Assembly: GCA_944392805.1 (NCBI GenBank)
Contig: CALXXZ010000006.1
Coordinates: 21,587 to 85,586, forward strand
Direction of reading: 5' to 3'
DNA from: an uncultured Clostridia bacterium
GTDB lineage: Bacteria > Bacillota > Clostridia > TANB77 > CAG-508
Length of the DNA: 64,000 nt
Below, piece after piece: positions 32,238 to 51,567 of the stretch. The position numbers and the translations under genes were made by a program. Each line of letters starts with the position of its first letter. Position 1 is the stretch's first letter. The notes beneath the pieces were generated by a model. It saw only the letters and a list, made by a program, of their open reading frames with translations. It had not been told where the DNA came from and searched no databases.

Positions 32238-32642
32238 TTATTGTTTTCTATCCATGTTCATACATGTTCCATCATTCATGTAGAATTTCTTTTCTGCTAA
32301 TTTGTCTTGTACTCCTCTTAATGCTTCTCCAAATCTTTGAAAATGTACTATTTCTCTTTCTCTTAAGAATCTTAATGGATCTATTACATCTGGGTTGTCT
32401 CTACACAAATCTATTAATTTTTCATAAGTTGCTCTTGCTTTTTGCTCTGCTGCTAAGTCTTCTTGTAAGTTTGCTATTGCATCACCTTTACATGCTATAT
32501 ATGCTGCTGTAAATGGCATTCCTGCTGCTGATTGTGGATATACATCAACACCATGGTCTGTATAATATGGTCCTAATCCTGCTGCTTCTATTTCTTCTAT
32601 TGATGCTCCTTTTGTCAATTGATGAACTATTGCCCCAATCAT
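32238..32642 (-). pseudogene. cotJC: Spore coat protein CotJC (Mn-catalase family), C-terminal fragment (attB-distal half of a split gene)
   Basis: 134 aa from an internal Met. The in-frame upstream codons GTKELAHLE continue the CotJC sequence. ...LAHLEMIGAIVHQLTKGAS...AAGLGPYYTDHG...AAEQKARATYEKLIDL...LRFLREREIVHFQRF matches the CotJC/Mn-catalase C-terminal half. A stop lies immediately upstream at the insertion junction. Confidence 0.8.
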
Positions 32643-32678
32643 TTCTAAGTGAGCTAATTCTTTAGTACCATGTTCTTA

Positions 32679-36315: not shown

Positions 36316-36357
36316 AGCATTATTTTAAGATAAATTTTTTTATTTGTCAAGAAAAAT

Positions 36358-36388
36358 AATTATCCCCCAGTATAACTGGGGGATAATT
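36358..36388. promoter_or_regulatory. Perfect 14-bp-arm palindrome in a divergent promoter region (candidate operator)
   Basis: aattatcccccagt-ata-actgggggataatt lies between the ABC exporter operon (minus) and the surface-protein/sortase operon (plus). Both genes point away from it, so it is not a terminator for either. Confidence 0.4.
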
Positions 36389-36498
36389 ATGCAAATTCAC
36401 CTTTTATCAAATAAAAATTTTTGGAAAAAATTTTTAATGATTTTTGTAAATATTTAAAATTAAAAAGGAGACAATAATTTTTGATGGAGGTGAAAAAA

Positions 36499-37623
36499 AT
36501 GAATAAAACAATAAAATTCATTTTATTTTTTATAATAACAGCTATTTTTGCAATTATACTACCTAATTATAGTAATGCTGCAACAACAGCTCATGATGAA
36601 GAATCTTTAAATAGTGTAATTTCAAGTGCGGATCCAGGAGCAACAATAACATTACAAAATGATATTACAGTAACAAAACCAATTGTAATTGCTAAAGAAT
36701 TAACAATTGATGGTAATGGTCATAATGTAGTTGGTTCTAATGATTGGACATCAACATCAGGAAATCAAACAATGTTTACAGCTCAATTTTCTGCAGCTAA
36801 ACTTACATTAAGAAATATTCAATTAAAAAATGGTCCAAAATATGGTGTACAATCTTATGATGGTGCAACTGTAATTTTAGATAATGTTTCAATTTCAGGA
36901 TTTAAATTCGGTGGTGTTCTTGCAAATGGTGGTAATGTTGAAGTTAAAAGATTACATTTAGGAAAAAATGGTACTAACGAAAATAATGGTATAGAAATTG
37001 ACAAAGGTTCTGCCGCTACTAATAACCCAAGCTTAGTCATGAATGGTGTTTTAACAACTGATTCAAATCAAAATGTAATTCGTCCAGCTGAAAATGGTCA
37101 TTTAACAGATTTTACTATTACAAATACACCTGCTACTACAAACAAAGTTGTTTTATCAGGAAATAAAGTTGTTTTAACTGACTCAAAAAATAATGTTATT
37201 TCAGAAACAACTATACCAAGTAATGCTAAACCAAATGTAGATGTAAAACAACTTATTGTTACTATTTTTGCTAAGGATGTGACTTATAAAATCACAGTAA
37301 ATTCAGGTGAAAAAATTACAGCTGATTTATTAAAATCTCATATTAAACTAGAAAATAATCAAGTTGTTGATGGATTCTATACAGATGCAAATTTTGCTAA
37401 TGCTTTTGATTTTAATACTTCTATAACTACTGATACTACTGTCTATGCAAAAATATCAAAAGTTGAACCAACTGTACCAGAAACTCCACCACAAGTAAAT
37501 AATGGAGTAAAAGATGAAACACCAAAAACTGGTGCTCAAAATTATTTAGGAATAGCTGTATTAACTATATTATTCTCAATAGTAGCAATTGTAACTATTA
37601 ACAAGAAAAATATAAAAGGATAG
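36499..37623 (+). CDS. Cell-wall-anchored surface protein (beta-helix-like repeats) with C-terminal sortase-B-type sorting signal TPKTG
   Basis: Signal peptide MNKTIKFILFFIITAIFAIILPNYSNA, and a C-terminal ...ETPKTGAQNYLGIAVLTILFSIVAIVTINKKNIKG (motif, hydrophobic helix, basic tail). The start was chosen at 36499 after GGAGGTG. Confidence 0.6.
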   Translation: MNKTIKFILFFIITAIFAIILPNYSNAATTAHDEESLNSVISSADPGATITLQNDITVTKPIVIAKELTIDGNGHNVVGSNDWTSTSGNQTMFTAQFSAAKLTLRNIQLKNGPKYGVQSYDGATVILDNVSISGFKFGGVLANGGNVEVKRLHLGKNGTNENNGIEIDKGSAATNNPSLVMNGVLTTDSNQNVIRPAENGHLTDFTITNTPATTNKVVLSGNKVVLTDSKNNVISETTIPSNAKPNVDVKQLIVTIFAKDVTYKITVNSGEKITADLLKSHIKLENNQVVDGFYTDANFANAFDFNTSITTDTTVYAKISKVEPTVPETPPQVNNGVKDETPKTGAQNYLGIAVLTILFSIVAIVTINKKNIKG

Positions 37624-37665
37624 TCTTTAAGGTCTATCCTTATATAATATATTTTTGGAGTTAAC

Positions 37666-38481
37666 ATGGAAAAAACTAAAAGATTTTATGTTTTTATATA
37701 TTTTGTTTTAGTTTTATTAATTTTTTTATCAGTTATATACATCACATATTCTATGTTATTAAAAAAAGAAGCTATTGAAGAAAGTAACTTATTGAATAAT
37801 ATTAGTGATGATAAAATTGTTAGTAATGTTATAAGAAAAAATACAATTTCAAATACTACAGAATCTCCAGTTGAAACAACACCTAAAGAAACAGACAGAA
37901 TGCTTAAGGTAAAAGAACTTAAAAATCAAAATTCTGATATTGTAGGTTGGTTAGAAATACCCAATACTAGTATTAATTATCCAGTTTTACAAGGTTCTGA
38001 TAATCAATATTATATGAATCACAATTATAAAAAACAAAAGTCTAAAAATGGTTCTATTTTTTTAACAAAGGATTATAATTGGGAAATTCCAAGTAGTAAT
38101 TTTTTAATATACGGTCATAATTTGAATAATGGCACAATGTTTCAAGAATTATTAAAATATTCTAGTAAATCTTTTTATGAACAACATCCTAAAATTCGTT
38201 TTACAACTGTGAAAGATGATTCAGAATATGAAATTATTGCTGTTTTTAAATCAAGAGTATATTATCAATCAGAAAAAAATGTTTTTAGATATTATTTTTT
38301 TGTGAATGCTGAAACAGAACAAGAATATAATGATTTTATACAAAATGCGAAAAATGCATCTTTATATAATATTGATGCTACGGCAAAATATGGAGATCAA
38401 TTAATTACCTTATCTACTTGTTCTTATCATGTCAAAGATGGAAGATTTGCTGTGGTTGGAAGAAAAATTGAAAAATTATAA
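37666..38481 (+). CDS. srtB: Class B sortase
   Basis: 271 aa. N-terminal membrane anchor, then catalytic His (LIYGHN) and the TLSTC active-site Cys motif with a downstream Arg (FAVVGRK). A strong hairpin terminator follows at 38484-38515. Confidence 0.8.
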   Translation: MEKTKRFYVFIYFVLVLLIFLSVIYITYSMLLKKEAIEESNLLNNISDDKIVSNVIRKNTISNTTESPVETTPKETDRMLKVKELKNQNSDIVGWLEIPNTSINYPVLQGSDNQYYMNHNYKKQKSKNGSIFLTKDYNWEIPSSNFLIYGHNLNNGTMFQELLKYSSKSFYEQHPKIRFTTVKDDSEYEIIAVFKSRVYYQSEKNVFRYYFFVNAETEQEYNDFIQNAKNASLYNIDATAKYGDQLITLSTCSYHVKDGRFAVVGRKIEKL

Positions 38482-38753
38482 CAGTCATACAATTACAAAA
38501 TAATTGTATGACTGCCCTATTCTTTCATATCTATTTTATCAATTTTCGGATATCAATATTAGGTATTTTTTTATTCCGTGCTCATAAATTTTATAGAGGC
38601 GATTTTTATGATATTAGAAGAATATACCCTAGAAAATACAAAAATAAAATTTTACGATGATTATATAGTTAAGAATATTGATACTCAAAAAGAATATATA
38701 AATAATGTTATTATAAATTTGATAAGAAAATCCTTTTCATGAAAGGAGAAATT

Positions 38754-40301
38754 ATGCAAGATGGCACATATGCAATATATCTAAGAAAATCTAGAGAAGA
38801 TATTGAAGCTGAAAAATATGGTGAAGGCGAAACTTTAGCAAGACATGAAAAAATTTTAACTACTTTAGCCGAAAAGCGAAATCTACCCATTTCAAGAATT
38901 TATAAAGAAGTTGTAAGTGGCGAAACAATCAGTGAAAGAAAAGAAATGCAAAAACTTTTAAAAGATGTTGAAAATGAGAAATGGACTGGTATTTTAGTTG
39001 TTGAAGTAGAAAGACTTGCTCGTGGCGATACTGCTGATCAAGGTATAGTTGCAAAAGCCTTCAAATATTCACATACAAAAATTATCACTCCTATGAAAAT
39101 ATATGACCCTGACAATGAATTTGATGAAGAATATTTTGAATTTGGTCTATTTATGTCTAGAAGAGAATATAAAACTATAAATAGACGTTTACAAAGAGGA
39201 CGTGAACTCTCAGTTCAAGAAGGTAAATTTGTTGGAAATATTGCTCCATTTGGCTATGATAGATTAAAACTAAAAGATTCAAAAGGATATACCCTATCTA
39301 TAAATCAAGATGAAGCACTTATAGTTAAAGAAATTTTTAGATTATATGCTTTTGAAAATGCGACTTTAAATTCAGTTGCACAACAGCTAAATGATCTAAA
39401 TTTGAAACCTAGAATTGCAAATGAATGGACAATTTCTTCTGTTAAAGATATTCTTTCTAATCCTACCTATATTGGTAAAATTGCATGGAATAGAAGAAAA
39501 CAAAAAAAGAAAACCAAAAATGGAAATATTATCATTACTAGACCTCGTAACACAGAGTTTTTAATTTATGATGGATTACATGAACCTATTATTGATAATA
39601 AAACTTGGATTATAGTTCAGGAAAAAAGAAAACAAAATACTCCTAAAATAAAACATAGCAATACTATTCAAAATCCATTAGTAGGACTCGTTTTTTGTGA
39701 AAAATGTGGCAAGCTAATGCAAAGGCGACCTTATTCAAAAGATGGTAAGCCTGCAACTTTAATTTGTTCTAATCCAAAGTGTGATAATGTAAGTTCTAAA
39801 CTTTATATTGTTGAAAATAAAATTATCGAATCATTAAAAATATGGCTTAAAAATTTTAAAATAAATTATGATTTTAAAAATAACTCAAGTTTCAATAATG
39901 AAATAATTGAAAAATCTATTGTTTCAACTCAAAAAGAACTAAAAAAAGAAAATTTGAAGCTTGATAAAGTTTATGTGTTTTTAGAAAATGGATTGTATAA
40001 TAGTGATGAGTTTATTAATCGTTCAAAAATTATAAAAAATAATATTGAAAGTTTAGAAATTAAATTAAATAAATATAATTCTTTATTACAACAAAATTTA
40101 GAAGATCAAAAAAATACTACAATACCAAGTTTAGAAAATGTTATGGATTTATATTATAAACTAGAGACTGCTGGAGATAAAAATGCTTTTCTAAAGTGTT
40201 TACTTTCAAAAGTTACATATTTGAAAACAAAAAAGTCTATAAAAAAGGATTCTGACCCAACTAATTTTGAATTACATTTATATCCTAAAATATTAATCTA
40301 A
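38754..40301 (+). CDS. Large serine recombinase (resolvase/invertase catalytic domain + recombinase domain + zinc ribbon + coiled-coil)
   Basis: N-terminus MQDGTYAIYLRKSRED carries the catalytic Ser, and ...VVEVERLARGD is resolvase-like. Zn ribbon CEKCG...CSNPKC and a C-terminal coiled-coil follow. AAAGGAG lies 6 nt before ATG 38754. Confidence 0.85.
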   Translation: MQDGTYAIYLRKSREDIEAEKYGEGETLARHEKILTTLAEKRNLPISRIYKEVVSGETISERKEMQKLLKDVENEKWTGILVVEVERLARGDTADQGIVAKAFKYSHTKIITPMKIYDPDNEFDEEYFEFGLFMSRREYKTINRRLQRGRELSVQEGKFVGNIAPFGYDRLKLKDSKGYTLSINQDEALIVKEIFRLYAFENATLNSVAQQLNDLNLKPRIANEWTISSVKDILSNPTYIGKIAWNRRKQKKKTKNGNIIITRPRNTEFLIYDGLHEPIIDNKTWIIVQEKRKQNTPKIKHSNTIQNPLVGLVFCEKCGKLMQRRPYSKDGKPATLICSNPKCDNVSSKLYIVENKIIESLKIWLKNFKINYDFKNNSSFNNEIIEKSIVSTQKELKKENLKLDKVYVFLENGLYNSDEFINRSKIIKNNIESLEIKLNKYNSLLQQNLEDQKNTTIPSLENVMDLYYKLETAGDKNAFLKCLLSKVTYLKTKKSIKKDSDPTNFELHLYPKILI

Positions 40302-40400
40302 TCACATAAAAATACTACTTTAACAACAATTGTGAAAGAATAAATATGTGCATTTTTAAGCATATTTATTCTTTTGAATATTCTCCCAAATGAAGAGTAT

Positions 40401-40883
40401 TTAATTTTTATCTTTTAATAAAACATTTCTCATTTCAACTATATCATAAAAAGGAATATGTATTCCTTCTTCTGCTAATCTTACTACTCTTAATGCAATA
40501 GTTATAATCTCATCTTTAACTACTTTTGGAATTTCTACATCTATATTTGAATTTATATACTTTTCTGCTATGTATTTTTCAGTAGTTGGAAAAATATTTT
40601 GTATCAAGAATACAGCTTTTTTTCCTAACACATTTCCAAAAACAAAATTATATACCGGTCGATTTCCAATTTTTAATTTTTTATTATCATAGATTTTTTT
40701 GTATTTATCATATTTAGTTGATATAGGAACAAACCATATTATTTCTTTATCTTTTCTATCTCTAAAACAAAAATAGCAAGGTCTTTTATTTCCAGATTCT
40801 TTATTTTTCATTAATTTATATTTTTTAAATATATCAAAAAACTCATCTTTTATAAAATAAAATTTTCCATCTTCTATTACCAT
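40401..40883 (-). CDS. ToxN/AbiQ-like endoribonuclease toxin candidate (type III toxin-antitoxin / abortive infection)
   Basis: 160 aa. The N-terminus KFYFIKDEFFDIFKKY...NKRPCYFCF...VPISTKY...FLIQNIFPTTEKY matches the ToxN/AbiQ pattern (KFY.I..Y...L..FD.KV...RP/NP....PL[ST]S.K; ...MIPI.E). It is immediately preceded by tandem repeats and a terminator in the type III toxin-antitoxin arrangement. Confidence 0.5.
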   Translation of the reverse strand: MVIEDGKFYFIKDEFFDIFKKYKLMKNKESGNKRPCYFCFRDRKDKEIIWFVPISTKYDKYKKIYDNKKLKIGNRPVYNFVFGNVLGKKAVFLIQNIFPTTEKYIAEKYINSNIDVEIPKVVKDEIITIALRVVRLAEEGIHIPFYDIVEMRNVLLKDKN

Positions 40884-40953
40884 TCTTTATCTCCTTTTAT
40901 GAAAATATGGGATCTAACTTAACTTTATAGACCCCATATTTTTACTATACTTA

Positions 40954-41060
40954 ACATTTTTTCACCTGCACATTTATATCTCGCAAGCAGGGTTGCGGTT
41001 CACATTTTTTCACCTATCCATTTATTCGACGCAAATAGGGTTGCGACTCACATTTTTAAT
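40954..41060 (-). ncRNA. Candidate type III antitoxin RNA: 2.2 tandem 48-nt repeats upstream of the ToxN-like gene
   Basis: R1 acattttttcacctgcacatttatatctcgcaagcagggttgcggttc and R2 acattttttcacctatccatttattcgacgcaaatagggttgcgactc are ~75% identical. Each has a conserved cgcaa-N6-ttgcg stem. A partial third repeat follows. A hairpin (aaatatgggatctaac...agaccccatattt, ~40905-40945) separates the repeats from the toxin gene. Confidence 0.5.
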
Positions 41061-41201
41061 TATAGTAGATATAAAATATCTACTACTATTATATTCATTA
41101 TACACACTTTTTATTAATATTTCAAGATTTATTTACAAATTAATTGAAAAAATTTTGGAAATTCACTAAATATGTTTTAATGTCTCTAGCTATTGACAAC
41201 A

Positions 41202-41408
41202 TCATGATACCCATTCTTCAGTACCAATATCATTTAATATAGCTTTTGCATTTTGGTCAGGCATACCAAATCTTTGAGACAAATATCTTAAAGAAGCCGC
41301 AAGTTCACCATCAGGACCTCCATATTGAGAAATTATTACTTTTGCAAGACGAGGGTCTGTGCATTTAATATTAACCGGATATTGTAGCATTTTATTATAA
41401 GTCCACAT
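41202..41408 (-). pseudogene. cotJC: Spore coat protein CotJC, N-terminal fragment (65 native codons + 3 element-encoded codons), with native ribosome-binding site
   Basis: MWTYNKMLQYPVNIKCTDPRLAKVIISQYGGPDGELAASLRYLSQRFGMPDQNAKAILNDIGTEE matches the CotJC N-terminus (B. subtilis MWVYEKKLQYPVKVS...LLTDIGTEE). It is followed by WVS-stop from the insertion. AAGGGGGAA lies 8 nt upstream of the ATG. Confidence 0.8.
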
Positions 41409-41472
41409 TTAAAAATTCCCCCTTTCCCAAGGCCACCCTTGGTTCAATATGGAGGAATTTTTTATAATTGTT

Positions 41473-43057
41473 TCATGCAGAAATATCAAATTTATACTTT
41501 ATATTGACATTTCTATCATCTATAACAATTCTATCAATTAACTTAAAAGCTAAACTTACATTTTCATCATTCAATTCATTAAGGTCTAAAATTTCTTTTA
41601 TTAAATCTCTATTATTTTTTCTTACATTAGCACTCTCTATTTTCTTTATTTCATATCTTTTTATCTCAATTTCTAATTGTTGTTTTTGACTTTCATATTT
41701 TTTTATAAGGTTTGAAAAAGTATCTTGTGAGATTATTTTAGCTATTTTATCTTCATATAAGTTACTTATTAATTTATTAACTTCTCGTTTTTTATTTTGA
41801 ATATTCATAATATCATTTTCATCATTTTCTTTATTTTGGATACCGTTTAAATTGCAAATCTGAAATATTTAAGAATTTTTGTATATTATTTTTTAATGAC
41901 CTTCTAACGATTTCTATTAATTCATCTTCTCTTATGTGGACACCTTCGCAAAAGTTTTTTCCATATTTTTTATAATTTGAACACACACATCTAAAATATC
42001 TGCCATGATTTTTATTATATGTAATTTTACTACCACATTTACAATAAACTAAGCCTGTTAATAAATGTCTTTTTCTATTAGAATAATTCCATTCATTTGT
42101 CTGTTTTTCTAGCATTTCTTGTACAGTATTATAAACTGCTCTACTTATTATAGCAGGATAATTATTTTCTACTATCACTTGTTTATCTGGAGATACTTTT
42201 TCAGTTTTTTGTATCTTATAATTTATTTTTTTAGATTTCAGTTGAATTAAATCTCCCACATAGCTTCTATCTCTCAATATCTTATTAATAATTGTAGAAT
42301 TCCATTTATATGTACAATTCTGTTTTGCATTTGGATTATAATAATTTGTTGTGTCTTGCTTATGTTGTAATGGTGTTTTTATTCCCCACTCATTAAACTT
42401 ATTTGCAATTTGTGTTTTTGAATTTCCTGACATATATAAATCAAAAATCTTTCTTACATTATCAGCAACTTCTTCATCTATTAATATATTATTTTTATTG
42501 TGTATATCTTTTTTCAAGCCATATGGTAAAAATGGTTTTATACATTCTCCTGCATTTGCTTTTGTAGTAATTACTGTTCTTACTTTATTTGAAATATCTT
42601 TTGCATACATATCATTAAATACTGCTTTAAACGGTGTTATATCGCTACTAAAATTATTTATATCAAATGTATCTATATTATCATTGACTGCGATATATCT
42701 TACTCTTTTTTCTGGAAAGTATTTCTCTAAAAATCGTCCTGTTTCTATGTAATCCCTTCCTAATCTTGATAAGTCTTTTGTAATAACTAAATTGATTATT
42801 CCATTTTCTATGTCTTTTATCATTCTCTGAAAAGCTGGTCTATTAAAATTTGTTCCAGTATAGCCATCGTCTGAATAAATGTCTATTAAATTCCATTTCA
42901 TTTTTAATACGACATTTTTTAAGAATTTAATCTGATTTTCAATACTTTCTGATTGACTTTTATATTTTGCTTCTTTCTCATCTTCTCTTGATAGCCTTAC
43001 ATATATGGCCACTTTCCATGTACCTTCTTCTACTAAATAGTTATCTGACTCATACAT
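41473..43057 (-). pseudogene. Second large serine recombinase, interrupted by a stop plus +1 frameshift (408-aa + 111-aa ORFs); probably inactivated
   Basis: 43057..41831 encodes the catalytic domain (AIYVRLSREDEKEAKY...), the recombinase domain and a zinc ribbon (CKCGSK...CVCSNYKKYGKNFC). 41808..41473 encodes the C-terminal coiled-coil expected in the same protein. The two are out of frame and 22 nt apart. The gene ends 64 bp from the cotJC ATG. Confidence 0.65.
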
Positions 43058-43457
43058 ACTTCCCTCCTATCTTGAGTCTATAACTACTTTTCTATTGTTC
43101 TTGAAATAAAAAAATAATTATTTTCATCAATCCAACTTTGAATTAAGTCCAATAATTTCTTCCCATCTTTTGTATATGTTTCTGTTATATTTTCATTCAA
43201 TGTAATCACCTCAATACAGTATATGCATTGGCAGTAAAAAATAGTTAAGAAATGGTTTCTTAGCTATTTTTTTGAATTGAATATAATATTTATGAATATA
43301 TTTTATATTAATTTTTTGATTATGTCTACTCTATTTTTTTACCTTTTTTTATCTTTATGTTATTTTCTGCCAAAATTTCCTATAATATTCAAGGTTGAAT
43401 TTTTAGTTTTTTATTGATACAATTCCAAAAAATAAAATTTTTAAAGGAGATATTGTT

Positions 43458-44003
43458 TTGGAAGAACTAATAAAAAATACATTGAATGGTGATAAGCATT
43501 CTTTTGAAGTTTTAATTGATTCTGTAGAAAGCGACTTATATCGTGTTGCACAAGCTAAACTTAGTAATATTGATGATATAAATGATGCTATTCAAGAAAC
43601 AATTACTAAAGCTTATTCTAAACTACATACTTTAAAGAAATCGAAATATTTTAGAACTTGGATTATAAAAATTTTGATTAATGAATGTAATGTTATTTAC
43701 AGAAAGAAGTATAAGCAAGCTAAAATTTTTAATAAATTATCTATTTCTAAAATTACTGATGAGGTTACTAATCCTTTTAATATTGTGGAAGATAAAATTG
43801 ATTTTGATATTTTACTTAAACATTTAAACGAAAAAGAACAATTAATTTTAGCTTTATATTTTAATAGTAAATTTATTCCTGATGAAATATCTGATATTTT
43901 GGGCATTAATGTAAATACTGTTAAAAGTATAATTTATAGAGCTAAAGAAAAACTTAAAAAATTTGTGGAAAAGGAGGAATTAGATAATGAATCAAGAAAA
44001 TAA
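43458..44003 (+). CDS. ECF-type sigma-70 family RNA polymerase sigma factor (paralog 1 of 3)
   Basis: 181 aa. Region 2 (DDINDAIQETITKAYSKL...WIIKILINECN) and region 4 (ISDILGINVNTVKSIIYRAKEKL) are present. TTG start with AAAGGAGA ribosome-binding site. Confidence 0.7.
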   Translation: MEELIKNTLNGDKHSFEVLIDSVESDLYRVAQAKLSNIDDINDAIQETITKAYSKLHTLKKSKYFRTWIIKILINECNVIYRKKYKQAKIFNKLSISKITDEVTNPFNIVEDKIDFDILLKHLNEKEQLILALYFNSKFIPDEISDILGINVNTVKSIIYRAKEKLKKFVEKEELDNESRK

Positions 44004-45045
44004 TGATAACTTAGATAAATTTTTATTTGATGCATATGAAAAAAATAAAGATATTCCTCTTTCTACTCAGAATATTATTGATAATACTATTGATAATTTA
44101 TTTGCTGAGAAAAATGTTAAACATAAAAAATCTTTTAATTTTGTACTAAAAAGAGTTGCTGTTTTGGTAATTTCACTTAGTGTCGTTACAGCTTCTACCG
44201 TTTTTGCTAAGGATATTATTAATTTCTTTACTTCGATTTTTACTAATAGCAATAAAGGCGTAGATACTGCTGTTGAAAATGGCTATGTGCAAAATGTGGA
44301 TATGGATTTTATTGAAGATAATAATTTGGGTGTTAAAGTTGATTATGTGCTTATGGATGACCACAATCTTAATATTTCATTTGTATATAAATACTTGGGT
44401 GATGATGTTTCTCAAATTACTGGGTTGAATTATATGGATTTAACTATTAAGGATGAAAATGAGAATGTTTTATATAGGTCTTCTAAAGATAATCAAAATG
44501 ATAATATGGTAAGTAATATTACAAAATACACAAACAATCAACAAATTATAGATAACACTACAATTAGAAGTTCTTTATTAGCTGCTTCTAATAATTTTCC
44601 AAAATCGGAAATGTTGTATATTTCAATAAATAATATATCTTTAAATAGTAATGATGAACTTATAAATGTTAATGGTAATTGGAATTTCTCAATAAATTTA
44701 GCTGATAAATTTATATATAGAACTAGTTATAAATATAATTGTAGTGATAATAAATATATTAACAATATAGAAACTTTACTTACAGACACTTCTTTAAAGA
44801 TCACTTTACAATTAAATACACCTTTTAATAAAAATATGATTTATTTGTACAATTCTATTATTTTAAAAGACGTTGATAATAAAGTATATTCTTATACTGA
44901 AATGTCAAGTAAAAATACCTCTGATTCAACTAGTTCAATTACATTATTTTATCCAATTACAATTTATGATACAAATATTGATAAATTATTTTTACATATT
45001 GATTTAGATACAGATAAAAGTATTGATATAGAATTATTAAAATGA
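43987..45045 (+). CDS. Putative anti-sigma factor: short cytoplasmic N-terminus, single transmembrane helix, large Asn/Ser-rich extracytoplasmic domain
   Basis: 352 aa. It overlaps the sigma gene by 17 nt. Transmembrane helix RVAVLVISLSVVTASTVFA. A terminator follows at 45050-45075 (gaggcatcaccaagatgcctctttt). Confidence 0.45.
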   Translation: MNQENNDNLDKFLFDAYEKNKDIPLSTQNIIDNTIDNLFAEKNVKHKKSFNFVLKRVAVLVISLSVVTASTVFAKDIINFFTSIFTNSNKGVDTAVENGYVQNVDMDFIEDNNLGVKVDYVLMDDHNLNISFVYKYLGDDVSQITGLNYMDLTIKDENENVLYRSSKDNQNDNMVSNITKYTNNQQIIDNTTIRSSLLAASNNFPKSEMLYISINNISLNSNDELINVNGNWNFSINLADKFIYRTSYKYNCSDNKYINNIETLLTDTSLKITLQLNTPFNKNMIYLYNSIILKDVDNKVYSYTEMSSKNTSDSTSSITLFYPITIYDTNIDKLFLHIDLDTDKSIDIELLK

Positions 45046-45134
45046 GAGGCATCACCAAGATGCCTCTTTTACAAGAAAATGATTCAATCAAATTAAATTA
45101 TTTACAGCTTCTCATTTAAATCTTTAGACGCATT

Positions 45135-45671
45135 TCAGCCCCATGTATCGAAATACATACATACTCTTAAATTAGAACTGCTACCAGTTACAAGGTAATA
45201 CTTGAAATAATATGTCCTATTAGGGACAATCTTTACATTAGGTACTGTTATTGCAGTACCATCCGCTGTTGCTGTAGCAATAACTAAACAATTATTATTG
45301 TAATCCCACAGCTCCGCAGAAACTTGTTTATTTGGATAGGAATTTCCATCCGCTCCAATTACCTCAAGGGTAAAATTGAGATAATTGCCACTATATTTTC
45401 TATCAGCACCACGGTAGTAGTTTCCTTTCATCGTAAAACATGACTGTATTAAATAGGTTCCTACACCATTTTCATCGACACTTTCCGGTGTCAACTCCAT
45501 TTCGTACGTTGTCCGTGTCTTTCCATTATCCAGTTTTTCGACTGAAACAATTTTTCCATTTGGATTTTCATTGTCAGCCTCGGCTGCAAGAGATACCATA
45601 GAAAAATTAGAAAAGCCCATCAACATAGCCATTACAAAAGCAACAATCCGATTTCTTTTTTTGGTCAACAT
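45135..45671 (-). CDS. Secreted protein of unknown function with clearly higher GC than its surroundings (likely horizontally acquired)
   Basis: 178 aa. Signal peptide MLTKKRNRIVAFVMAMLMGFSNFSMVSLAAEA. The coding sequence is roughly 38-40% GC against a ~25% background, with codon usage using C/G third positions. Confidence 0.5.
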   Translation of the reverse strand: MLTKKRNRIVAFVMAMLMGFSNFSMVSLAAEADNENPNGKIVSVEKLDNGKTRTTYEMELTPESVDENGVGTYLIQSCFTMKGNYYRGADRKYSGNYLNFTLEVIGADGNSYPNKQVSAELWDYNNNCLVIATATADGTAITVPNVKIVPNRTYYFKYYLVTGSSSNLRVCMYFDTWG

Positions 45672-45948
45672 ACATTTTCCTCCTTATTCTAGACCCAATT
45701 AAATCATTTTCCTGCTAAACCAATAAGTTACAGTTTGAAATTTATCTTAAACTTAACTATTGATTTCAAGTTATTACTTGTTTTGTACAGTTTCGTACAT
45801 TTCTTGGTAATTTTAGCACAAAAAGTTACAAAAAATAAAAAAAGGTAAAAAAAGATAAATATTTTTTACTTTTTTTCGACATTTTTTTAATATTTTGCAT
45901 TCGAATATCATTTTTTCGCATCTAATGTTTGGGAGATGGAAGGAAAAA

Positions 45949-46668
45949 ATGTTAAATTTACTTATTATTGATAAAGATGTTAATCATTCTATGAAATTAC
46001 TTAATGAATTTTCAAAAAATGCTGAAATTAAAGTATATAATGTTACTAGCACATTATTAGATGGAATTAAACTTTTAAATACTGGTATTATAGACATAAC
46101 TATAATAAATCTTAATTGTACAATTGATGAAATTACTAATGCTTTTAAACTAATTTCGAAATCATATATTGAAAAATACAACAAATCTATGATTGTATTG
46201 TCTAGTAAGGTTAGCAAATTGACTTCAAATGATTTTGTATACAGTTTTATTGATGATACTGAAGATATTTCAAAAATTTATATTAAAACTTGTGAAATAG
46301 TTGAAAACAAGTTTTATAAAATAAATAAAATTGATTTACTTACTAAGATAAATAAAGAATTAGAATATATTGGTTACAATATGTCCTATAATGGAACAAA
46401 ATACTTATCTGAATGTATTGCGCTAATTTATAGTAGTCATGATTATAGTGAAAATTTGAACAAAAACATTTATCCTGTTATTGCTAAAAAATATAATAAA
46501 ACTATCAATAATGTTAAGTGTAGTATCACTTGTGCAACTACTTCTATGTTTTATGATTGTGATGAAACTAGATTAAAAAATTATTTTAATTTTTATACTG
46601 TTATTAAGCCAAAACCTAAAGTCGTTATTTATACGATATTGAATAAAATTTATAATATAAAGTGCTAG
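45949..46668 (+). CDS. Spo0A-like protein: degenerate receiver domain (phospho-acceptor Asp replaced by Asn) + Spo0A C-terminal DNA-binding domain
   Basis: The C-terminal ...NIYPVIAKKYNKTINNVKCSITCATTSMF aligns to the Spo0A_C helix-turn-helix region ([26 protein letters not shown]). The N-terminal ~110 aa have a receiver-like pattern (IIDKD...ITIINLN...MIVLSS) but Asn sits at the Asp56 position. The start was chosen at 45949 after GGAAGGA. Confidence 0.5.
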   Translation: MLNLLIIDKDVNHSMKLLNEFSKNAEIKVYNVTSTLLDGIKLLNTGIIDITIINLNCTIDEITNAFKLISKSYIEKYNKSMIVLSSKVSKLTSNDFVYSFIDDTEDISKIYIKTCEIVENKFYKINKIDLLTKINKELEYIGYNMSYNGTKYLSECIALIYSSHDYSENLNKNIYPVIAKKYNKTINNVKCSITCATTSMFYDCDETRLKNYFNFYTVIKPKPKVVIYTILNKIYNIKC

Positions 46669-46747
46669 TACAAAAAATAGAAGAATATCAATAGTTAGAA
46701 AAAACTATTGATATTCTTCTTTAATAATCATGGATAATTGTATAAAT

Positions 46748-47755
46748 TTAAAAATAAAATCCAACACACAAATTTTCTTTAAATTCATTACTTAATTCTA
46801 TTTGATTTAGTTTTACATTCATGTTATATGATGATATTTCCATATTTGAATATGTATTATAAATATAATCTTGTACTTTTTCATTATTACATCTAGTTTG
46901 GTCTAAATAAACCCTATATTCATTTTCTATATATTGTATATCAAAAATACTCATTGAATAATCTATTTTATCTTGTACTCTAACAATTCTAATAAAATCT
47001 TCTTTATTATTTTTTGTATTTTCTACAAATTGTTCTATTCTAAATTTATTATCAGAAATCACTTCCGAATTATAAATTACAACACAATTATCTAAAACGG
47101 CTTGTTCTTTTGAATAATCTTTTGGAAGTTCCTCTAATGGTACATAACCATCTGATTTAGGTATTTTTTTTGCTCTATCAACATGAATCTCATCTCTATC
47201 TAATGTATTACTAATTTTTACTGACAAAATTTCTTTTTGGCTCTCATTTTCATTATCTCTATCTATTTCTACATATAATATTTTGTCATCAGTTTCTATA
47301 TTAGAAACATAAATACCAGGCATATATGGACTTGTTGATATTATAATTAGCAAAAAGTTATCTTTAAAATCTTCTTCTGTCATTTCAATTAAATTACTCA
47401 TGTTTTCTTTATATTTTAAATAATCATTAAAATTAGTTATTTTCTTATAATAAAATCTATTCATATATTCCATATCTTCTTTATAATCATAACTATAATT
47501 TGATACTGCAGTTTTTTGCGTAAAATATTCATATGCTGTTGTAAGTCCATATACTAATCCTGAAGTCCCTAAAAGTACTAATATTATTGTGATAGTACTT
47601 GTTAATAATTTTCTTATTTTATAATTGATTTCATTCTTTTGCTTTGTCTTTAATGTATAATCAATCCTATGTTCAATCTGTTGTGGTATTATAGTGTCTT
47701 TTTTACTTAAATCTTTTAATACTTCTTCAATTTCTTTCATACAATTCACCTCCAT
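46748..47755 (-). CDS. Putative anti-sigma factor (single transmembrane helix, extracytoplasmic domain), partner of sigma paralog 2
   Basis: 335 aa. Transmembrane helix LLTSTITIILVLLGTSGLVYGL. It overlaps the sigma gene by 29 nt. Confidence 0.4.
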   Translation of the reverse strand: MEVNCMKEIEEVLKDLSKKDTIIPQQIEHRIDYTLKTKQKNEINYKIRKLLTSTITIILVLLGTSGLVYGLTTAYEYFTQKTAVSNYSYDYKEDMEYMNRFYYKKITNFNDYLKYKENMSNLIEMTEEDFKDNFLLIIISTSPYMPGIYVSNIETDDKILYVEIDRDNENESQKEILSVKISNTLDRDEIHVDRAKKIPKSDGYVPLEELPKDYSKEQAVLDNCVVIYNSEVISDNKFRIEQFVENTKNNKEDFIRIVRVQDKIDYSMSIFDIQYIENEYRVYLDQTRCNNEKVQDYIYNTYSNMEISSYNMNVKLNQIELSNEFKENLCVGFYF

Positions 47756-48275
47756 ATTCTTGTCTTAATTTATCTTTCGCCCTTCTTATTTTAGTTTTGA
47801 TAGTATTTTCATTTTTCCTCATAATATGACCTATCTCTTTTGTTGTATATCCTGAATAATAGTATAAAGTTAAAATTGTTTGTTCATCAGGTGATAAATT
47901 TTTTATAAACATTTCAAAGTCTATTTTTTCTAAATTATCTTCTACTTCAATATACTTGTCCATTTCATTTTCTTCAATTGAAATATTGTATTTTTTCTTT
48001 TTATTATAAATATTATTGCATTTACTTATTAGTATTTTTATTAACCATGGTTTAAATACTTTATCATTTTTTAGTTTTCGGATATTTTTATAACAAGTTA
48101 ATATTGTATCTTGTATTGCATCTGCTATATCATCCATATCATTAAGTCTTGTCCTTGCTATACAGTACAAGTCACTTTTTATAGAATTTATTAATTCATC
48201 AAATGCTTCATCATCTTCTTTGGCTTTTTTCACTAATTCTTCCAATTTTAGTTCCTCCATTTTTAATATGTACAT
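47727..48275 (-). CDS. ECF-type sigma-70 family sigma factor (paralog 2 of 3)
   Basis: 182 aa. It shares DDI.DAIQ.T...WLIKILI.KCN and region-4 motifs with the other two paralogs. It begins 8 bp after the cotJB stop. Confidence 0.7.
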   Translation of the reverse strand: MYILKMEELKLEELVKKAKEDDEAFDELINSIKSDLYCIARTRLNDMDDIADAIQDTILTCYKNIRKLKNDKVFKPWLIKILISKCNNIYNKKKKYNISIEENEMDKYIEVEDNLEKIDFEMFIKNLSPDEQTILTLYYYSGYTTKEIGHIMRKNENTIKTKIRRAKDKLRQEYGGELYERN

Positions 48276-48283
48276 ATTTATAC

Positions 48284-48676
48284 TTATAAGACCGCCAATA
48301 GGTTATTATTAGTTTCAAAAATATCAAATTTTACATCTAAACAAAACGAACCCCATGGTTCTTCAAGCCATCTCCATTTATTACATGGAAATTGAATAGT
48401 CAATGGTCCATAAACTTTTTGATATTTATCTGTTAATTCTCTGTATTCTTTACTATATTTTCTATGCAAGCATAAAGCTTTTTCATCTTCAGGATGAGTG
48501 TCTAGATATAAAGCCAATTCGGTAATAGCAAAATTCAAGCATTTTATTCTTTCCATCATTTCTTCTCTAGTTTGATCATAATTGCAATCATTATTTGGCA
48601 TAGGATTATTAGTCATATACATTGAATAATTATTATTCATCATACAATTGCAATTTCTATTATCCATTTCGTTCAT
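48284..48676 (-). CDS. cotJB: Spore coat protein CotJB
   Basis: 130 aa. FAITELALYLDTHPEDEKALCLHRKYSKEYRELTDKYQKVYGPLT matches the CotJB domain (..L.LYLDTHP.D..AL..Y.....EL...Y...YGPL). An Asn/Met-rich N-terminal extension is present. Confidence 0.75.
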   Translation of the reverse strand: MNEMDNRNCNCMMNNNYSMYMTNNPMPNNDCNYDQTREEMMERIKCLNFAITELALYLDTHPEDEKALCLHRKYSKEYRELTDKYQKVYGPLTIQFPCNKWRWLEEPWGSFCLDVKFDIFETNNNLLAVL

Positions 48677-49035
48677 TATCTATTACACCCCTCTCCTATT
48701 TTATTTGTTGCCGCTATGAATTCATTAGTTCTCATAGATTGACATGGTTCATATGGACTGACTAATTCTGGGAAAATCGTTCCCATTTTTAATCCAACAC
48801 ATGGTTTAAATGTTTTATCCATATATTGCATTGGTACATAACTTTGTGCTAACATTGGATTTTCTGGGAATACACTCATTTCGTATTCTTCGTCAAATCC
48901 ACATTCACATTTGTCGTTATTACATTCTTCATATGCACATGGACATACATTATCACACTTATCTTCAATTAAATTCATATTTGAATTTTGTGTATTATTC
49001 ATGCAATAGCATTTTTTGTATCTGCGTCTTAACAT
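48676..49035 (-). CDS. cotJA: Spore coat-associated protein CotJA
   Basis: 119 aa. The C-terminal MLAQSYVPMQYMDKTFKPCVGLKMGTIFPELVSPYEP matches the CotJA signature (LA.AYVPWQ....Y....AL..GT.FPEL..PY). A possible sigma-E/K-type promoter (AC-N17-CATATAAT) lies ~30 nt upstream of the ribosome-binding site. Confidence 0.65.
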   Translation of the reverse strand: MLRRRYKKCYCMNNTQNSNMNLIEDKCDNVCPCAYEECNNDKCECGFDEEYEMSVFPENPMLAQSYVPMQYMDKTFKPCVGLKMGTIFPELVSPYEPCQSMRTNEFIAATNKIGEGCNR

Positions 49036-49487: not shown

Positions 49488-51044
49488 TTATTTTAAATTA
49501 ATAATTAATGGGTCCATTTCATAATATATTTCTCCCCCAGTATCTTCTTGACCTTCAATCGGATTTCTAACTGTTTCTATTGGTACTATTTTTATATAAT
49601 CTGTATCAGTATTTTCTATAAGTAAATATTCTATAGTTTCCCATATGGCATTATTATATTTTTTATTAGGCAAATCATGTATATCATAATCTTCTCTTGT
49701 TCCGTCACTATATATTAGTGTTTTCTTGTTACTTGTACCAAAACAAGATAATTCTTTACCATTTGCATCATATACCTTATATTGTCTTGTTATTGGCAAA
49801 TGTTCTACATTAGGGTCTGCATATCTATTTGCAAAAGCATTAGATGATTGCTTACTTGCTGAATGATTTATCTTTACAATTGTCTGTATTGGTGAAATTA
49901 CAACCTTTTCTACTTTTTGTGTTATATTTCTAAATTCTGATTTTATTTCTGGATCTTCTATTACTTTACTGTCATTTAAAACTAAATCCTTAGATACATT
50001 TACTTCAAAATCTAATGGTAAATCTTTTACGTACTTTTCAGGTAAATACATATTGCTACTATCCTCTCTTGCAAACCACTGACAATCACTTAACCAATTA
50101 TCGCCTAAACCTTGCCATGCTGGCATATTTATCAATTTATTATTTTTTAATGTAATTTTAAAGTTTTCTTTACCTTTTAATTCATCATCTGTTAATGAAT
50201 ACATATTATAAATTTTATATTCGTAATCACTTATTTTTTCGACTTTTTGCCAATTTCTAACATAAAATGGTTCATCATCTATGTATATGCTTGCATACCA
50301 AGTAGTGTTTGGGTTAAATTTGTCATAATTATATACTCCACCTTTTTGCTCTGTGTTTAGTGCTAGACCTATTCTAAATCCGGTGCTTTTCCTTTCTTCT
50401 AATTGCTTATCATACATTTTTATTTTTTCTAAATATTCTTGATAATATTTAGAATTTTTTATTTCTTCTTCTGTTACTTCTATCTGGTCTAATATATTAT
50501 TTATTTCTTCATCAGTTTCATTTGTGAAATATCTTCCATATTTATCTGATTGAATCCTTTTTATCATTTTTTGTTTAGCTTTTTCCTTATCCTCTTGAAT
50601 TTGGTTATAAAATTCTTCTGTGTAAGCAGTTTCTCCAAGTCTTAGATTATTATAATCTTCTTGACTTAGTTTGACATTAAATTCTAAAATTGTTATTCCT
50701 TCACTACACATTGTAGAGGTTAATTCTACACTCGTATCTCCAAATGCAACAACTTGATTTTCTACTGGTTGTTTATATTCTATATATTTATCTGAAAATT
50801 TTATACCTAGCCAATCCATAGCAGGAATGCCCTCAATTTTCCCACCTGATACTGCATATACACTAAAAGTTCCTATTAATGTTGTTATAGTTGATATTAT
50901 GACTATAATAGCTTGTTTTATATAATTTTTTAACTTATGCTTTTTATTTATATATAAAGCTTTTTTTATGGTTCTTTCATAAGTATATGGCTCTTCTATT
51001 TCTTTAGATAACGCACTTTTTATCATTTTATCTAATACATCCAT
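49488..51044 (-). CDS. Putative anti-sigma factor / membrane-anchored extracytoplasmic protein, partner of sigma paralog 3
   Basis: 518 aa. N-terminal short cytoplasmic segment, transmembrane helix AIIVIISTITTLIGTFSVYAV, and a large outside domain. Its start lies 2 nt after the sigma gene stop. Confidence 0.4.
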   Translation of the reverse strand: MDVLDKMIKSALSKEIEEPYTYERTIKKALYINKKHKLKNYIKQAIIVIISTITTLIGTFSVYAVSGGKIEGIPAMDWLGIKFSDKYIEYKQPVENQVVAFGDTSVELTSTMCSEGITILEFNVKLSQEDYNNLRLGETAYTEEFYNQIQEDKEKAKQKMIKRIQSDKYGRYFTNETDEEINNILDQIEVTEEEIKNSKYYQEYLEKIKMYDKQLEERKSTGFRIGLALNTEQKGGVYNYDKFNPNTTWYASIYIDDEPFYVRNWQKVEKISDYEYKIYNMYSLTDDELKGKENFKITLKNNKLINMPAWQGLGDNWLSDCQWFAREDSSNMYLPEKYVKDLPLDFEVNVSKDLVLNDSKVIEDPEIKSEFRNITQKVEKVVISPIQTIVKINHSASKQSSNAFANRYADPNVEHLPITRQYKVYDANGKELSCFGTSNKKTLIYSDGTREDYDIHDLPNKKYNNAIWETIEYLLIENTDTDYIKIVPIETVRNPIEGQEDTGGEIYYEMDPLIINLK

Positions 51045-51045
51045 A

Positions 51046-51567
51046 TTATTGATTTCCTTTCAAATATTTATTTTTTATTTTATCTTTGCCTCGTTTTAAT
51101 CTTGTTTTTATGGTGTTTTCATTTGTTTTTAATATTTTTGATATTTCTTTTATTGAATAATCTTCTAAGTAAAATAATGTTATTGCTATTCTTTCATCAT
51201 AATTCAAGTCTCTTAAAATTAGATAAAAATCGACATTATCTAATTCTTCATAATTTTCATTTTGAGAATATATATTCTCTAGTTCAGTATCTTCAAAAGA
51301 AATATTCCTTTTTTTATTTTTATTAAAAATTTGATTGCATTTATTTATTAATATTTTTATAATCCATTTTTTATAGGATTCACTTTTGTTTAGTTTTCTT
51401 ATATTTTTAAATGCAATTATCATTGTCTCCTGAACAGCATCTTCTATGTCGTCTTCACAAGATAAACGGCATCTGGCTATTTTATATAAATCTTGTCTTA
51501 TTTCATATATTAATTCTGTAAATGCTTCTTTATCACCTTTTTGGGCTTTTATGACTAGTTCTTCCAT
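51046..51567 (-). CDS. ECF-type sigma-70 family sigma factor (paralog 3 of 3)
   Basis: 173 aa. MEELVIKAQKGDKEAFTELI...EDDIEDAVQETMIIAFKNI...WIIKILINKCN...ISKILKTNENTIKTRLKRGKDKI. GGAGGA ribosome-binding site. Confidence 0.7.
   Translation of the reverse strand: MEELVIKAQKGDKEAFTELIYEIRQDLYKIARCRLSCEDDIEDAVQETMIIAFKNIRKLNKSESYKKWIIKILINKCNQIFNKNKKRNISFEDTELENIYSQNENYEELDNVDFYLILRDLNYDERIAITLFYLEDYSIKEISKILKTNENTIKTRLKRGKDKIKNKYLKGNQ

Follow-up and report, generated by a model that had tools for sequence, protein, structure and literature searches.

An intervening element in cotJB of uncultured gut Clostridia, with a split serine recombinase gene that may be expressed by programmed +1 frameshifting

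Intervening elements that interrupt sporulation genes are known in sigK, spsM, spoVFB, spoVR and gerE (PMC4191935, PMC5595907). In the skin element of sigK (SpoIVCA; B. subtilis and C. difficile) and in SPbeta, which interrupts spsM (SprA–SprB), a small directionality factor controls excision, and the element is kept in the spore germ line and lost in the mother cell (PMC5025042, PMC4191935, PMC5499854). In Bacillus cereus ATCC 10987, gerE is interrupted by gin, a non-prophage element of 28.6 kb with three recombinases (PMC5595907). Here we analyse a 64,000-nucleotide stretch of DNA from an uncultured Clostridia bacterium (contig CALXXZ010000006.1; hereafter the window), in which a block of this kind interrupts the cotJ operon. 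As read from its junctions, the block measures 6,920 bp and is inserted in the cotJB reading frame after codon 108, and its large serine recombinase (LSR) gene is divided between two reading frames at a CGG codon that recurs at the same place in related elements. We give somewhat better than an even chance to the explanation that the whole is a cotJB-intervening LSR element, with a recombinase expressed by frameshifting and with excision during sporulation. Like gin, it is a non-phage element with a serine recombinase and a small accessory gene, sits in a short sporulation gene of the mother cell and permits that gene to be rebuilt precisely, here in silico; unlike gin, it targets cotJB, belongs to a family 3–9 kb in length and has one recombinase, which needs a +1 shift. 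Like skin and SPbeta, it has an LSR gene abutting an att site in a mother-cell gene; those two elements are prophage-derived and their recombinases are encoded by single open reading frames (ORFs), whereas the cotJB element carries sigma/anti-sigma pairs and a protein with the C-terminal domain of Spo0A, shares its operon with as many as two further elements, and would, by analogy with them, be excisable.

From B. subtilis, cotJ is known to be expressed in the mother cell under sigma-E. Pfam confirmed CotJA, CotJB and Mn_catalase (CotJC) in the window, and the cotJA–cotJB ORFs and the cotJC start lie about 6.9 kb apart, as the first-pass annotation of this DNA had read them. All three are on the minus strand: cotJA (49035..48676, 119 amino acids; PF11007, E=1.8e-13) is the first gene of the interrupted operon and is followed by the CotJB ORF (48676..48284). 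The first-pass annotation took the block to occupy a spacer between cotJB and cotJC, with limits at 41409 and 48283; the cotJB gene itself, however, ends directly upstream of cotJC. Codons 1–108 of cotJB (48353..48676, ending ..KWRWLEEPW) correspond to positions 1–73 of the Pfam CotJB model, and the match stops at position 73 of 76. Beyond the break, the ORF runs on from ..WLEEPW into GSFCLDVKFDIF.. (..EEPW followed by GSFCLDV..), which is element-derived and has no CotJB counterpart. The proper 3′ end, encoding PWERGNF and a TAA stop, lies at 41432..41409: the minus strand of the supposed 64-bp spacer reads ..GGG TGG CCT TGG GAA AGG GGG AAT TTT TAA ATG, that is W-P-W-E-R-G-N-F-stop, with CCT through TAA as the separated cotJB end, and the cotJB stop abuts the ATG of cotJC. 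Joining 48676..48353 to 41432..41409 gives a CotJB of 115 amino acids ending ..KWRWLEEPWPWERGNF. This product of precise removal matches both the uninterrupted loci and the C-termini of the intact CotJB proteins of relatives, many of which end ..EEPWPWERGNF (P0129, P0130, P0143 and P0144). The closest intact CotJB proteins, P0125 and P0126, are 79% identical, and at the loci that encode P0126 (L096 and L097) cotJA, an uninterrupted cotJB and cotJC adjoin one another; the comparison with relatives that the first-pass annotation had in view is thus answered by a natural empty site, which matches the in-silico excised cotJB–cotJC junction at 61 of 66 nucleotides.

The limits of the insertion are set by a TGG trinucleotide common to both junctions. 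The left core (attL; 48355..48353, minus strand) lies in the crossover region where GAAGAACCATGG meets GGTTCGTTTTG, with a host arm identical to the uninterrupted cotJB of relatives, and the right core (attR; 41435..41433, minus strand) lies between ..TTGAACCAAGGG and CCTTGGGAAAGG. In-silico removal takes out a body of 6,917 bp (41436..48352), or 6,920 bp with one TGG core. The element ends are imperfect inverted repeats, GAACC..GGTTC in the window and AACGAAAAC-TG-GGTTTCGTT in the majority type of the family, as expected of a serine-integrase attP. Att-like repeats at the block ends, for which the first-pass annotation proposed a search, are present, and the att sites are short, with imperfect dyad symmetry around the shared core, as an LSR would use. 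Excision would be expected to restore an attB (..GAAGAACCATGGCCTTGGGAAAGG..) and to leave an attP (..TTGAACCAAGGGTGGGGTTCGTTTTG..). The LSR gene ends 38 nt from the attR core, its stop codon 64 bp from the cotJC ATG, which bears out the earlier remark that the recombinase abuts a host gene fragment much as spoIVCA does. At the attL junction (48361..48348), host GAACC and element GGTTC, followed by GTTTTGTTT, form a weak hairpin resembling an intrinsic terminator, which could block cotJA–cotJB transcripts from entering the element. One contig, L001, ends within cotJB and was considered as a sign of mixed integrated and excised forms; we discarded it because it stops 53 nt short of the junction.

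A scan with the repaired LSR, one genome per species, gave 80 loci, almost all from metagenome-assembled genomes (MAGs), mostly under uncultured Clostridia, Clostridium sp. or Bacilli labels and many from human, rabbit and mouse gut samples. At about 45 of them an LSR homologue lies between cotJA with the 5′ part of cotJB on one side and cotJC on the other. Where cotJB was found, its tblastn match ends at or near residue 108 (105–115), and at all readable loci cotJB is broken after ..PW, the host side of attL ends ..CCWTGG and TGGCCWTGGGAARG.. stands upstream of the cotJC ATG. The related cotJB elements are 2.96–9.1 kb long (24 loci). The LSR gene runs with cotJ and adjoins cotJC in the window and in L003, L005, L006, L012, L022 and L025; at most other loci it adjoins the 5′ part of cotJB, together with a small ORF, on the opposite strand. 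The core at the opposite-orientation loci (L004 and the L007–L042 range) is CCA, not TGG, on the LSR strand, from which we conclude that the same attB is used both ways round; a central dinucleotide flipped in attP would account for this. L003 is a sister species with an LSR 87% identical to that of the window, and it is syntenic at 83–93% nucleotide identity over both the cotJB element and a second element that interrupts cotJC in the window. Separately, a group of homologues of about 465 amino acids (proteins P0069–P0091), starting ..GTNFDRPDF, is without the first ~65 residues, the catalytic serine included; it could mark a second recurrent break point or an artefact of gene calling.

In the window, the LSR gene consists of a zero-frame ORF of 408 codons (43057..41831, minus strand; Pfam Resolvase, Recombinase and Zn_ribbon_recom) and a +1-frame part running from a GGT glycine codon to its stop (41473..41844, minus strand), of which an ORF of 111 amino acids (41808..41473, no Pfam match) is the ATG-started portion. 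The first-pass annotation read this sequence correctly as a recombinase broken into 408 and 111 amino acids by a stop plus a +1 shift. Its further step, that the enzyme is probably inactive, fails on the comparison below, in which the same split is found in 10 lineages with an invariant CGG and a +1 ORF that is constrained and, wherever the contigs reach, open. From these sequences we think it likely that the gene is not dead and is expressed by way of a programmed +1 ribosomal frameshift.

The first-pass annotation also raised a sequencing error, and the region is indeed very A-rich, as a frameshift introduced by sequencing or assembly in an A/T-rich stretch would require. A metagenome contig from an independent assembly (L002) aligns to the window without gaps over 10,379 bp at 99.8% identity, and its LSR gene is split identically, so the split is not a one-off error. 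In nine more lineages, which come from different studies, the gene breaks at this very codon, and the additional base is a C outside any homopolymer; together these leave an error next to no probability. Among protein homologues, full-length forms of about 530 amino acids stand alongside 17 clusters of 407–420 amino acids, every one of which stops a few residues past the motif ..L-x-[FYLN]-x-R and has the arginine there. DNA was available for 10 split lineages (the window, L003, L112, L005, L094, L087, L088, L092, L083 and L111), which between them come from at least eight samples, and the N-terminal parts of the other nine are 68–90% identical in amino acid sequence to the window copy.

In all 10 lineages the zero frame reads ..NNN CGG N.., the ORF continues in the +1 frame and the first +1 codon over the CGG is glycine (GGT or GGA); in the window, this CGG lies at 41843..41845 on the minus strand (TTT AAA CGG TAT). 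The zero-frame stop follows 2–12 codons past the CGG. One lineage, L087, has a +1-frame stop immediately before AAC GGA, and another, L083, has its zero-frame stop two codons after CGG, which together confine the shift to the CGG. Each split LSR gene has exactly one CGG, at the junction (10/10), so that the window CGG is the sole one in its gene, and 35 intact family genes lack the codon altogether (18,202 codons, of which 639 encode arginine). No sense codon is rarer in the window, where CGG accounts for 3 of 17,538 codons and 0.5% of arginine codons in 48 long ORFs; it is also rare in other hosts of the element. The closest intact relative, P0001 (L089), reads TTC CAT AGT ATT at the junction position, without CGG. 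Split and intact genes are interspersed within one clade of a neighbour-joining tree, with at least four changes of state. The site is thus conserved and occupied by a rare zero-frame codon in 10 of 10 lineages. A shift at the zero-frame stop itself (AAA_TAA, as in Euplotes or prfB) was considered and rejected as the common mechanism, as the position and context of the stop vary over 2–12 codons and the CGG is invariant.

When the C is skipped, the split genes encode proteins of 522–534 amino acids that align with intact homologues through the C-terminus without gaps. The eight lineages with long enough contigs have 122–133 open codons in the +1 frame and 4–15 in the +2 frame. The ratio of nonsynonymous to synonymous substitution rates (dN/dS) of this C-terminal part is 0.42 (window versus L003) and 0.38 (L094 versus L005) in unsaturated pairs; that of the N-terminal part is 0.11–0.14, and pairs that include intact genes show the same N-to-C gradient. 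Selection on the downstream ORF would also be expected if the recombinase worked in two pieces, as a 408-amino-acid protein and a separately initiated coiled-coil polypeptide of about 110 residues, cooperating or acting as regulator and enzyme, without any frameshift. An ATG is present in the downstream ORF of the window, and in a structural model of an intact homologue the split falls exactly at a domain boundary, across which non-covalent assembly is conceivable. The downstream ORF, however, has no conserved start codon or ribosome-binding site (possible starts range from codon 1 to codon 25), and in L003 it has no start before the conserved LYEDK motif, for which reason we rejected separate initiation. 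Two pieces would also leave unexplained both the invariant CGG and a +1 frame that is open back to exactly that codon, with no stop between the CGG and the zero-frame stop; we regard this arrangement as unlikely. What is found, then, is an overlapping ORF without conserved initiation, encoding a homologous C-terminus and under purifying selection, as a +1 site would have it.

The domain layout of the recombinase indicates what such a shift would add. The 408-residue ORF contains Pfam Resolvase (E=3.7e-20), followed by Recombinase (PF07508) and a zinc ribbon (PF13408); its ..VRLSRED.. motif aligns to TnpX and TP901-1, and the closest solved sequence of the catalytic domain is that of TnpX (2mhc, E=9e-27). 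TnpX and TndX have the four-part LSR architecture that the full-length form would share, but are single ORFs that move Tn4451 and Tn5397 and do not target cotJB. In an AlphaFold2 model of the intact homologue P0001 (80% identical; mean predicted local distance difference test score 76), the junction falls near residue 404, in a loop between a helix of the zinc-ribbon domain (380–398) and two long antiparallel helices (412–439 and 445–472), which are followed by a small C-terminal helix and a hairpin. By this model, the two helices are the coiled coil of serine integrases. The best structural matches of the model are the full-length integrases in 9dxh and 9y66, which we take to be of SPbeta type, and those of phiC31, Bxb1 and LI. 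In serine integrases, the coiled coil controls synapsis and directionality. In the window, the +1-frame part encodes the hairpin of the coiled coil and the zinc-ribbon domain's C-terminal end; the coiled-coil helices are encoded in that frame only, so they enter the protein only if the shift occurs; since the junction precedes them, the zero-frame product has the catalytic and DNA-binding domains and no coiled coil.

Could the zero-frame product be the working enzyme? A 408-residue recombinase without coiled coil might be promiscuous, independent of a directionality factor and active in excision only, with the downstream frame left to decay, and one homologue, P0067 (447 amino acids), has a natural in-frame deletion of the entire coiled-coil region. 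Yet the downstream ORF is under purifying selection and is open in all split lineages in which it could be measured, and in the model the short form is also without the C-terminal strands beyond the coiled coil. Moreover, phiC31 integrase without its coiled coil is inactive (PMC10754689). We hold a working short form to be very unlikely.

In the mechanism that we propose, the ribosome would read ..TTT AAA and then meet CGG, the rarest and possibly a barely decodable codon. It would pause there, and in a fraction of events the next tRNA, a glycine tRNA on GGT, would bind one base downstream. Ribosomes that do not shift would reach a stop four codons later and release the 408-residue catalytic, recombinase and zinc-ribbon protein without coiled coil, which would predominate; those that shift would make a small amount of a 527-residue full-length integrase. 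The shift may keep the active enzyme scarce, or tie its level to the translational state, and the short form may act as a regulator. Transposases of the IS1 and IS3 insertion-sequence families likewise have a short zero-frame product and a rare trans-frame enzyme, which limits their activity. Those are DDE transposases, and they rely on −1 slippage on A-rich heptamers with downstream RNA structures (reviewed in PMC5009743); here the shift, in a serine recombinase, would be +1, at a rare codon and with no detectable structure. The pattern of the site (an extra C 5′ of GGA or GGT, a non-slippery preceding codon, no conserved RNA structure) is closer to other precedents. Glass-sponge mitochondria shift +1 at CGG_A and UGG_A, which has been interpreted in the manner of yeast Ty3, with its GCG_AGU_U site (PMC5009743), and the +1 site of influenza PA-X has a rare arginine codon in the A site, UUU_CGU (PMC3498833). 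Like the site proposed here, these combine a rare codon and a non-slippery preceding codon with no RNA structure; they come from mitochondria, yeast and viruses, whereas the present one lies in a bacterial chromosomal element and would yield two isoforms.

More tentatively, the CGG may be a hungry-codon sensor: stalled decoding, for example in the starvation that triggers sporulation, would raise the output of full-length integrase and with it excision and the rebuilding of the spore-coat operon, and the abundant short isoform would bind att sites and either set directionality or inhibit. We hold this idea to be on the doubtful side, and its link to sporulation-triggering starvation is speculation. 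A review of 2016 knew no examples of starvation-linked trans-frame proteins (PMC5009743). If the idea is true, the CGG sensor would be a natural case of such a protein and the first recoding-controlled serine integrase.

Upstream of the recombinase lies what may be the rest of a recombination module. A small ORF of about 38–41 codons (43084..43209, minus strand; ..TYTKDGKKLLDLIQSWIDENNYFF..) ends 26 nt upstream of the LSR gene and is a candidate directionality or accessory factor. Most members examined have such an ORF, of 35–56 amino acids with the motif IYxxxGxxLxELxQEWxxEN, 21–78 nt upstream of the LSR. The ORF of the window had no match in PHROGs, and no homology between it and known directionality factors was detectable. 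A −10-like motif, CATATACT (43218..43225, minus strand), lies directly 5′ of its ribosome-binding site, and CATAnAnT is conserved at the same position in most related loci, where the flanks diverge. The −10 boxes of mother-cell promoters are CATACAnT for sigma-E and CATAnnnTA for sigma-K. A scan for sigma-70 promoters gave a number of matches no different from that in shuffled sequence. CATAnAnT motif, small ORF and LSR together make up a recombination module at the cotJC-proximal end of the element. This organisation resembles that of sporulation-specific units with a recombinase and a small directionality factor (PMC5595907, PMC5499854, PMC5025042). By analogy with skin, SPbeta and gin, the chances seem about even that mother cells transcribe the module in the course of sporulation, and that the element then excises and rebuilds cotJB, which with excision of the element in cotJC would give one cotJABC operon.

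Several results count against the account given so far. RNAalifold on eight lineages predicted no pairs near the shift site, and no Shine–Dalgarno-like stimulator was seen there in the split lineages. The codon before CGG varies (AAA, AAT, AAG, GAA, GAG), so classical P-site slippage is unsupported and the efficiency may be very low. The site thus has neither stimulator nor slippery codon, although Ty3-type sites need neither. No tRNA-Arg(CCG) gene was found in the window or in 30 loci, which are genome fragments only and therefore uninformative on this point. The 10 split lineages are partly related, so that conservation of the CGG may in part reflect descent, though synonymous divergence (dS) between clades exceeds 1. 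The C-terminal part of the recombinase evolves faster than the N-terminal part. CATAnAnT resembles the −10 boxes of sigma-E and sigma-K, to which it is assigned only putatively. No attP junctions were found in JGI metagenomes with the window-type pattern (the relevant gut samples are mostly in ENA and Logan), nor in IMG/VR with the majority-type pattern. A degenerate attP pattern gave 13 metagenome matches, all of them unrelated palindromes without arm similarity, which are no evidence either way. Finally, the assemblies yielded no intact cotJB at or above 87% identity; all copies in that range were of the interrupted type. Such uniformity is expected if only terminal mother cells excise the element, and is equally compatible with a fixed element.

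A fixed element is what would be expected if the recombinase were a pseudogene. The element would then be old and non-excisable, would permanently uncouple cotJC from the cotJA promoter and would have altered the CotJB C-terminus. The LSR gene does have a stop and does need a +1 shift, no excision junction was found, and the closest relatives (87–98% CotJB identity) all carry the insertion. Real decay also exists in the family: the LSR of L034 is truncated at 442 amino acids with no continuing ORF in any frame, and appears to be a genuine pseudogene, in contrast to the CGG-type split. Decay does not, however, account for 10 lineages, separated between clades by a dS above 1, in which the break falls at one and the same codon and the +1 ORF remains open. 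At a stop chance of about 9% per random codon in this AT-rich sequence, we estimate a probability of some 1e-5 per lineage for such a frame to stay open. Constraint on the C-terminal part (dN/dS about 0.4) and the open frame are kept, the lesion is invariant in position and sequence, with a junction CGG otherwise absent from the family, and conservation extends to the small ORF, to the promoter-like motif and to the att arms. A dead recombinase in a fixed element is therefore, in our view, quite unlikely, a shade less likely than the two-piece enzyme and a shade more so than a working short form; we continue with the reading of a frameshift-expressed enzyme.

The cotJB element is not the only insertion in this operon. 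The 5′ fragment of cotJC (codons 1–65, 41408..41214, minus strand; Pfam Mn_catalase positions 1–66) ends at an inner element of 8,556 bp (window 32658..41225) that splits cotJC after codon 65 and has a 12-bp repeat at either end (GGTACTGAAGAA at 41225..41214 and GGTACTAAAGAA at 32669..32658); the remainder of cotJC is at 32642..32238. The inner element has an intact LSR gene (38739..40301) between the cotJC fragments, preceded in the same layout by CATAAATT (38583..38590) and an ORF of 44 amino acids (38608..38742). Its cargo comprises two ABC-transporter genes and genes for a beta-helix surface protein, a sortase and a 160-residue protein. Many related MAGs have an LSR about 80% identical at this codon of cotJC. 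The window and L002 show 21 differences, 20 of them concentrated at the 3′ end of the inner LSR gene (39759..40326), where its coiled coil and C-terminus should be encoded; the cluster looks like a recombination or gene-conversion tract and not like clock-like divergence.

The first-pass annotation had seen two successive insertions here, an older and possibly fixed one upstream of a younger one in cotJC. A second, independent recombinase-borne insertion upstream of that in cotJC does stand; the order of ages does not, as L003 has both elements at comparable divergence, and we dropped it. Nothing shows the cotJB element to be older, more decayed or fixed, and it occurs with an intact cotJC in L012, L017, L018, L023 and L042. 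A third site in cotJC, at codons ~102–120, is occupied in L008, L019, L021 and L096 by an LSR type 34–38% identical to the outer one. L021 appears to carry three elements in one cotJ operon (cotJB at codon 108, cotJC at codon 65 and cotJC at codon ~102), and in L096, where cotJB is intact, cotJC is interrupted near residue 111, beside a gene for a ParE toxin.

The remaining genes of the cotJB element are cargo. As the first-pass annotation listed, they include sigma/anti-sigma genes, a Spo0A_C protein and a GC-atypical secreted protein beside the recombinase, and Pfam, ORF and GC evidence bears out all of these. Next to attL are a sigma factor of the extracytoplasmic function type (sigma factor 1; 48275..47727, minus strand; Pfam Sigma70_r2 and r4_2) and an adjoining membrane protein of 335 amino acids without a Pfam match (47755..46748, minus strand). 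A protein with the Spo0A C-terminal DNA-binding domain follows (45895..46668, plus strand; Spo0A_C, E=4e-13), homologues of which are cargo in the related elements L092 and L112. Sigma factor 2 (43458..44003, plus strand; Sigma70_r2/r4) and a DUF4179 anti-sigma-like protein (43987..45045, plus strand) form a pair, which L089 and L112 also have beside the recombinase. Outside the element, upstream of cotJA, is a third sigma/anti-sigma-like pair (49488..51567); its sigma factor is 49% identical to sigma factor 1 of the element and 38% to sigma factor 2, and no similarity was detectable among the partner proteins of the three sigma factors. A secreted-looking protein of 178 amino acids (45671..45135, minus strand) has no Pfam match and a gene GC content of 0.31 against about 0.25, the window as a whole being ~25% GC. 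Apart from the shift site, this gene is the only one in the window with CGG codons (two; three in its L003 homologue), which suggests a recent acquisition from a donor of higher GC.

In the literature searched, we found no report of intervening elements in cotJB or cotJC, and none of a serine recombinase expressed by programmed frameshifting. What appears to be new is thus the target gene with its family of minimal LSR elements, and the control of a recombinase by recoding. If our interpretation is correct, annotation pipelines mislabel such genes as pseudogenes and their elements as ‘fixed’, and a single invariant CGG is the signature by which they can be recognised. An integrase that depends on a +1 shift would be a new control of site-specific recombination, analogous to that of insertion-sequence transposases but different in mechanism, and a natural enzyme in two forms, one with the coiled coil that sets integrase directionality and one without it, would be of direct interest to integrase engineers. 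On the same condition, cotJB, and cotJC at two sites, would join sigK, spsM, spoVFB, spoVR and gerE as genes interrupted by excisable elements. With up to three such elements stacked in one operon, spore-coat assembly in abundant uncultured gut Clostridia would depend on several DNA rearrangements.

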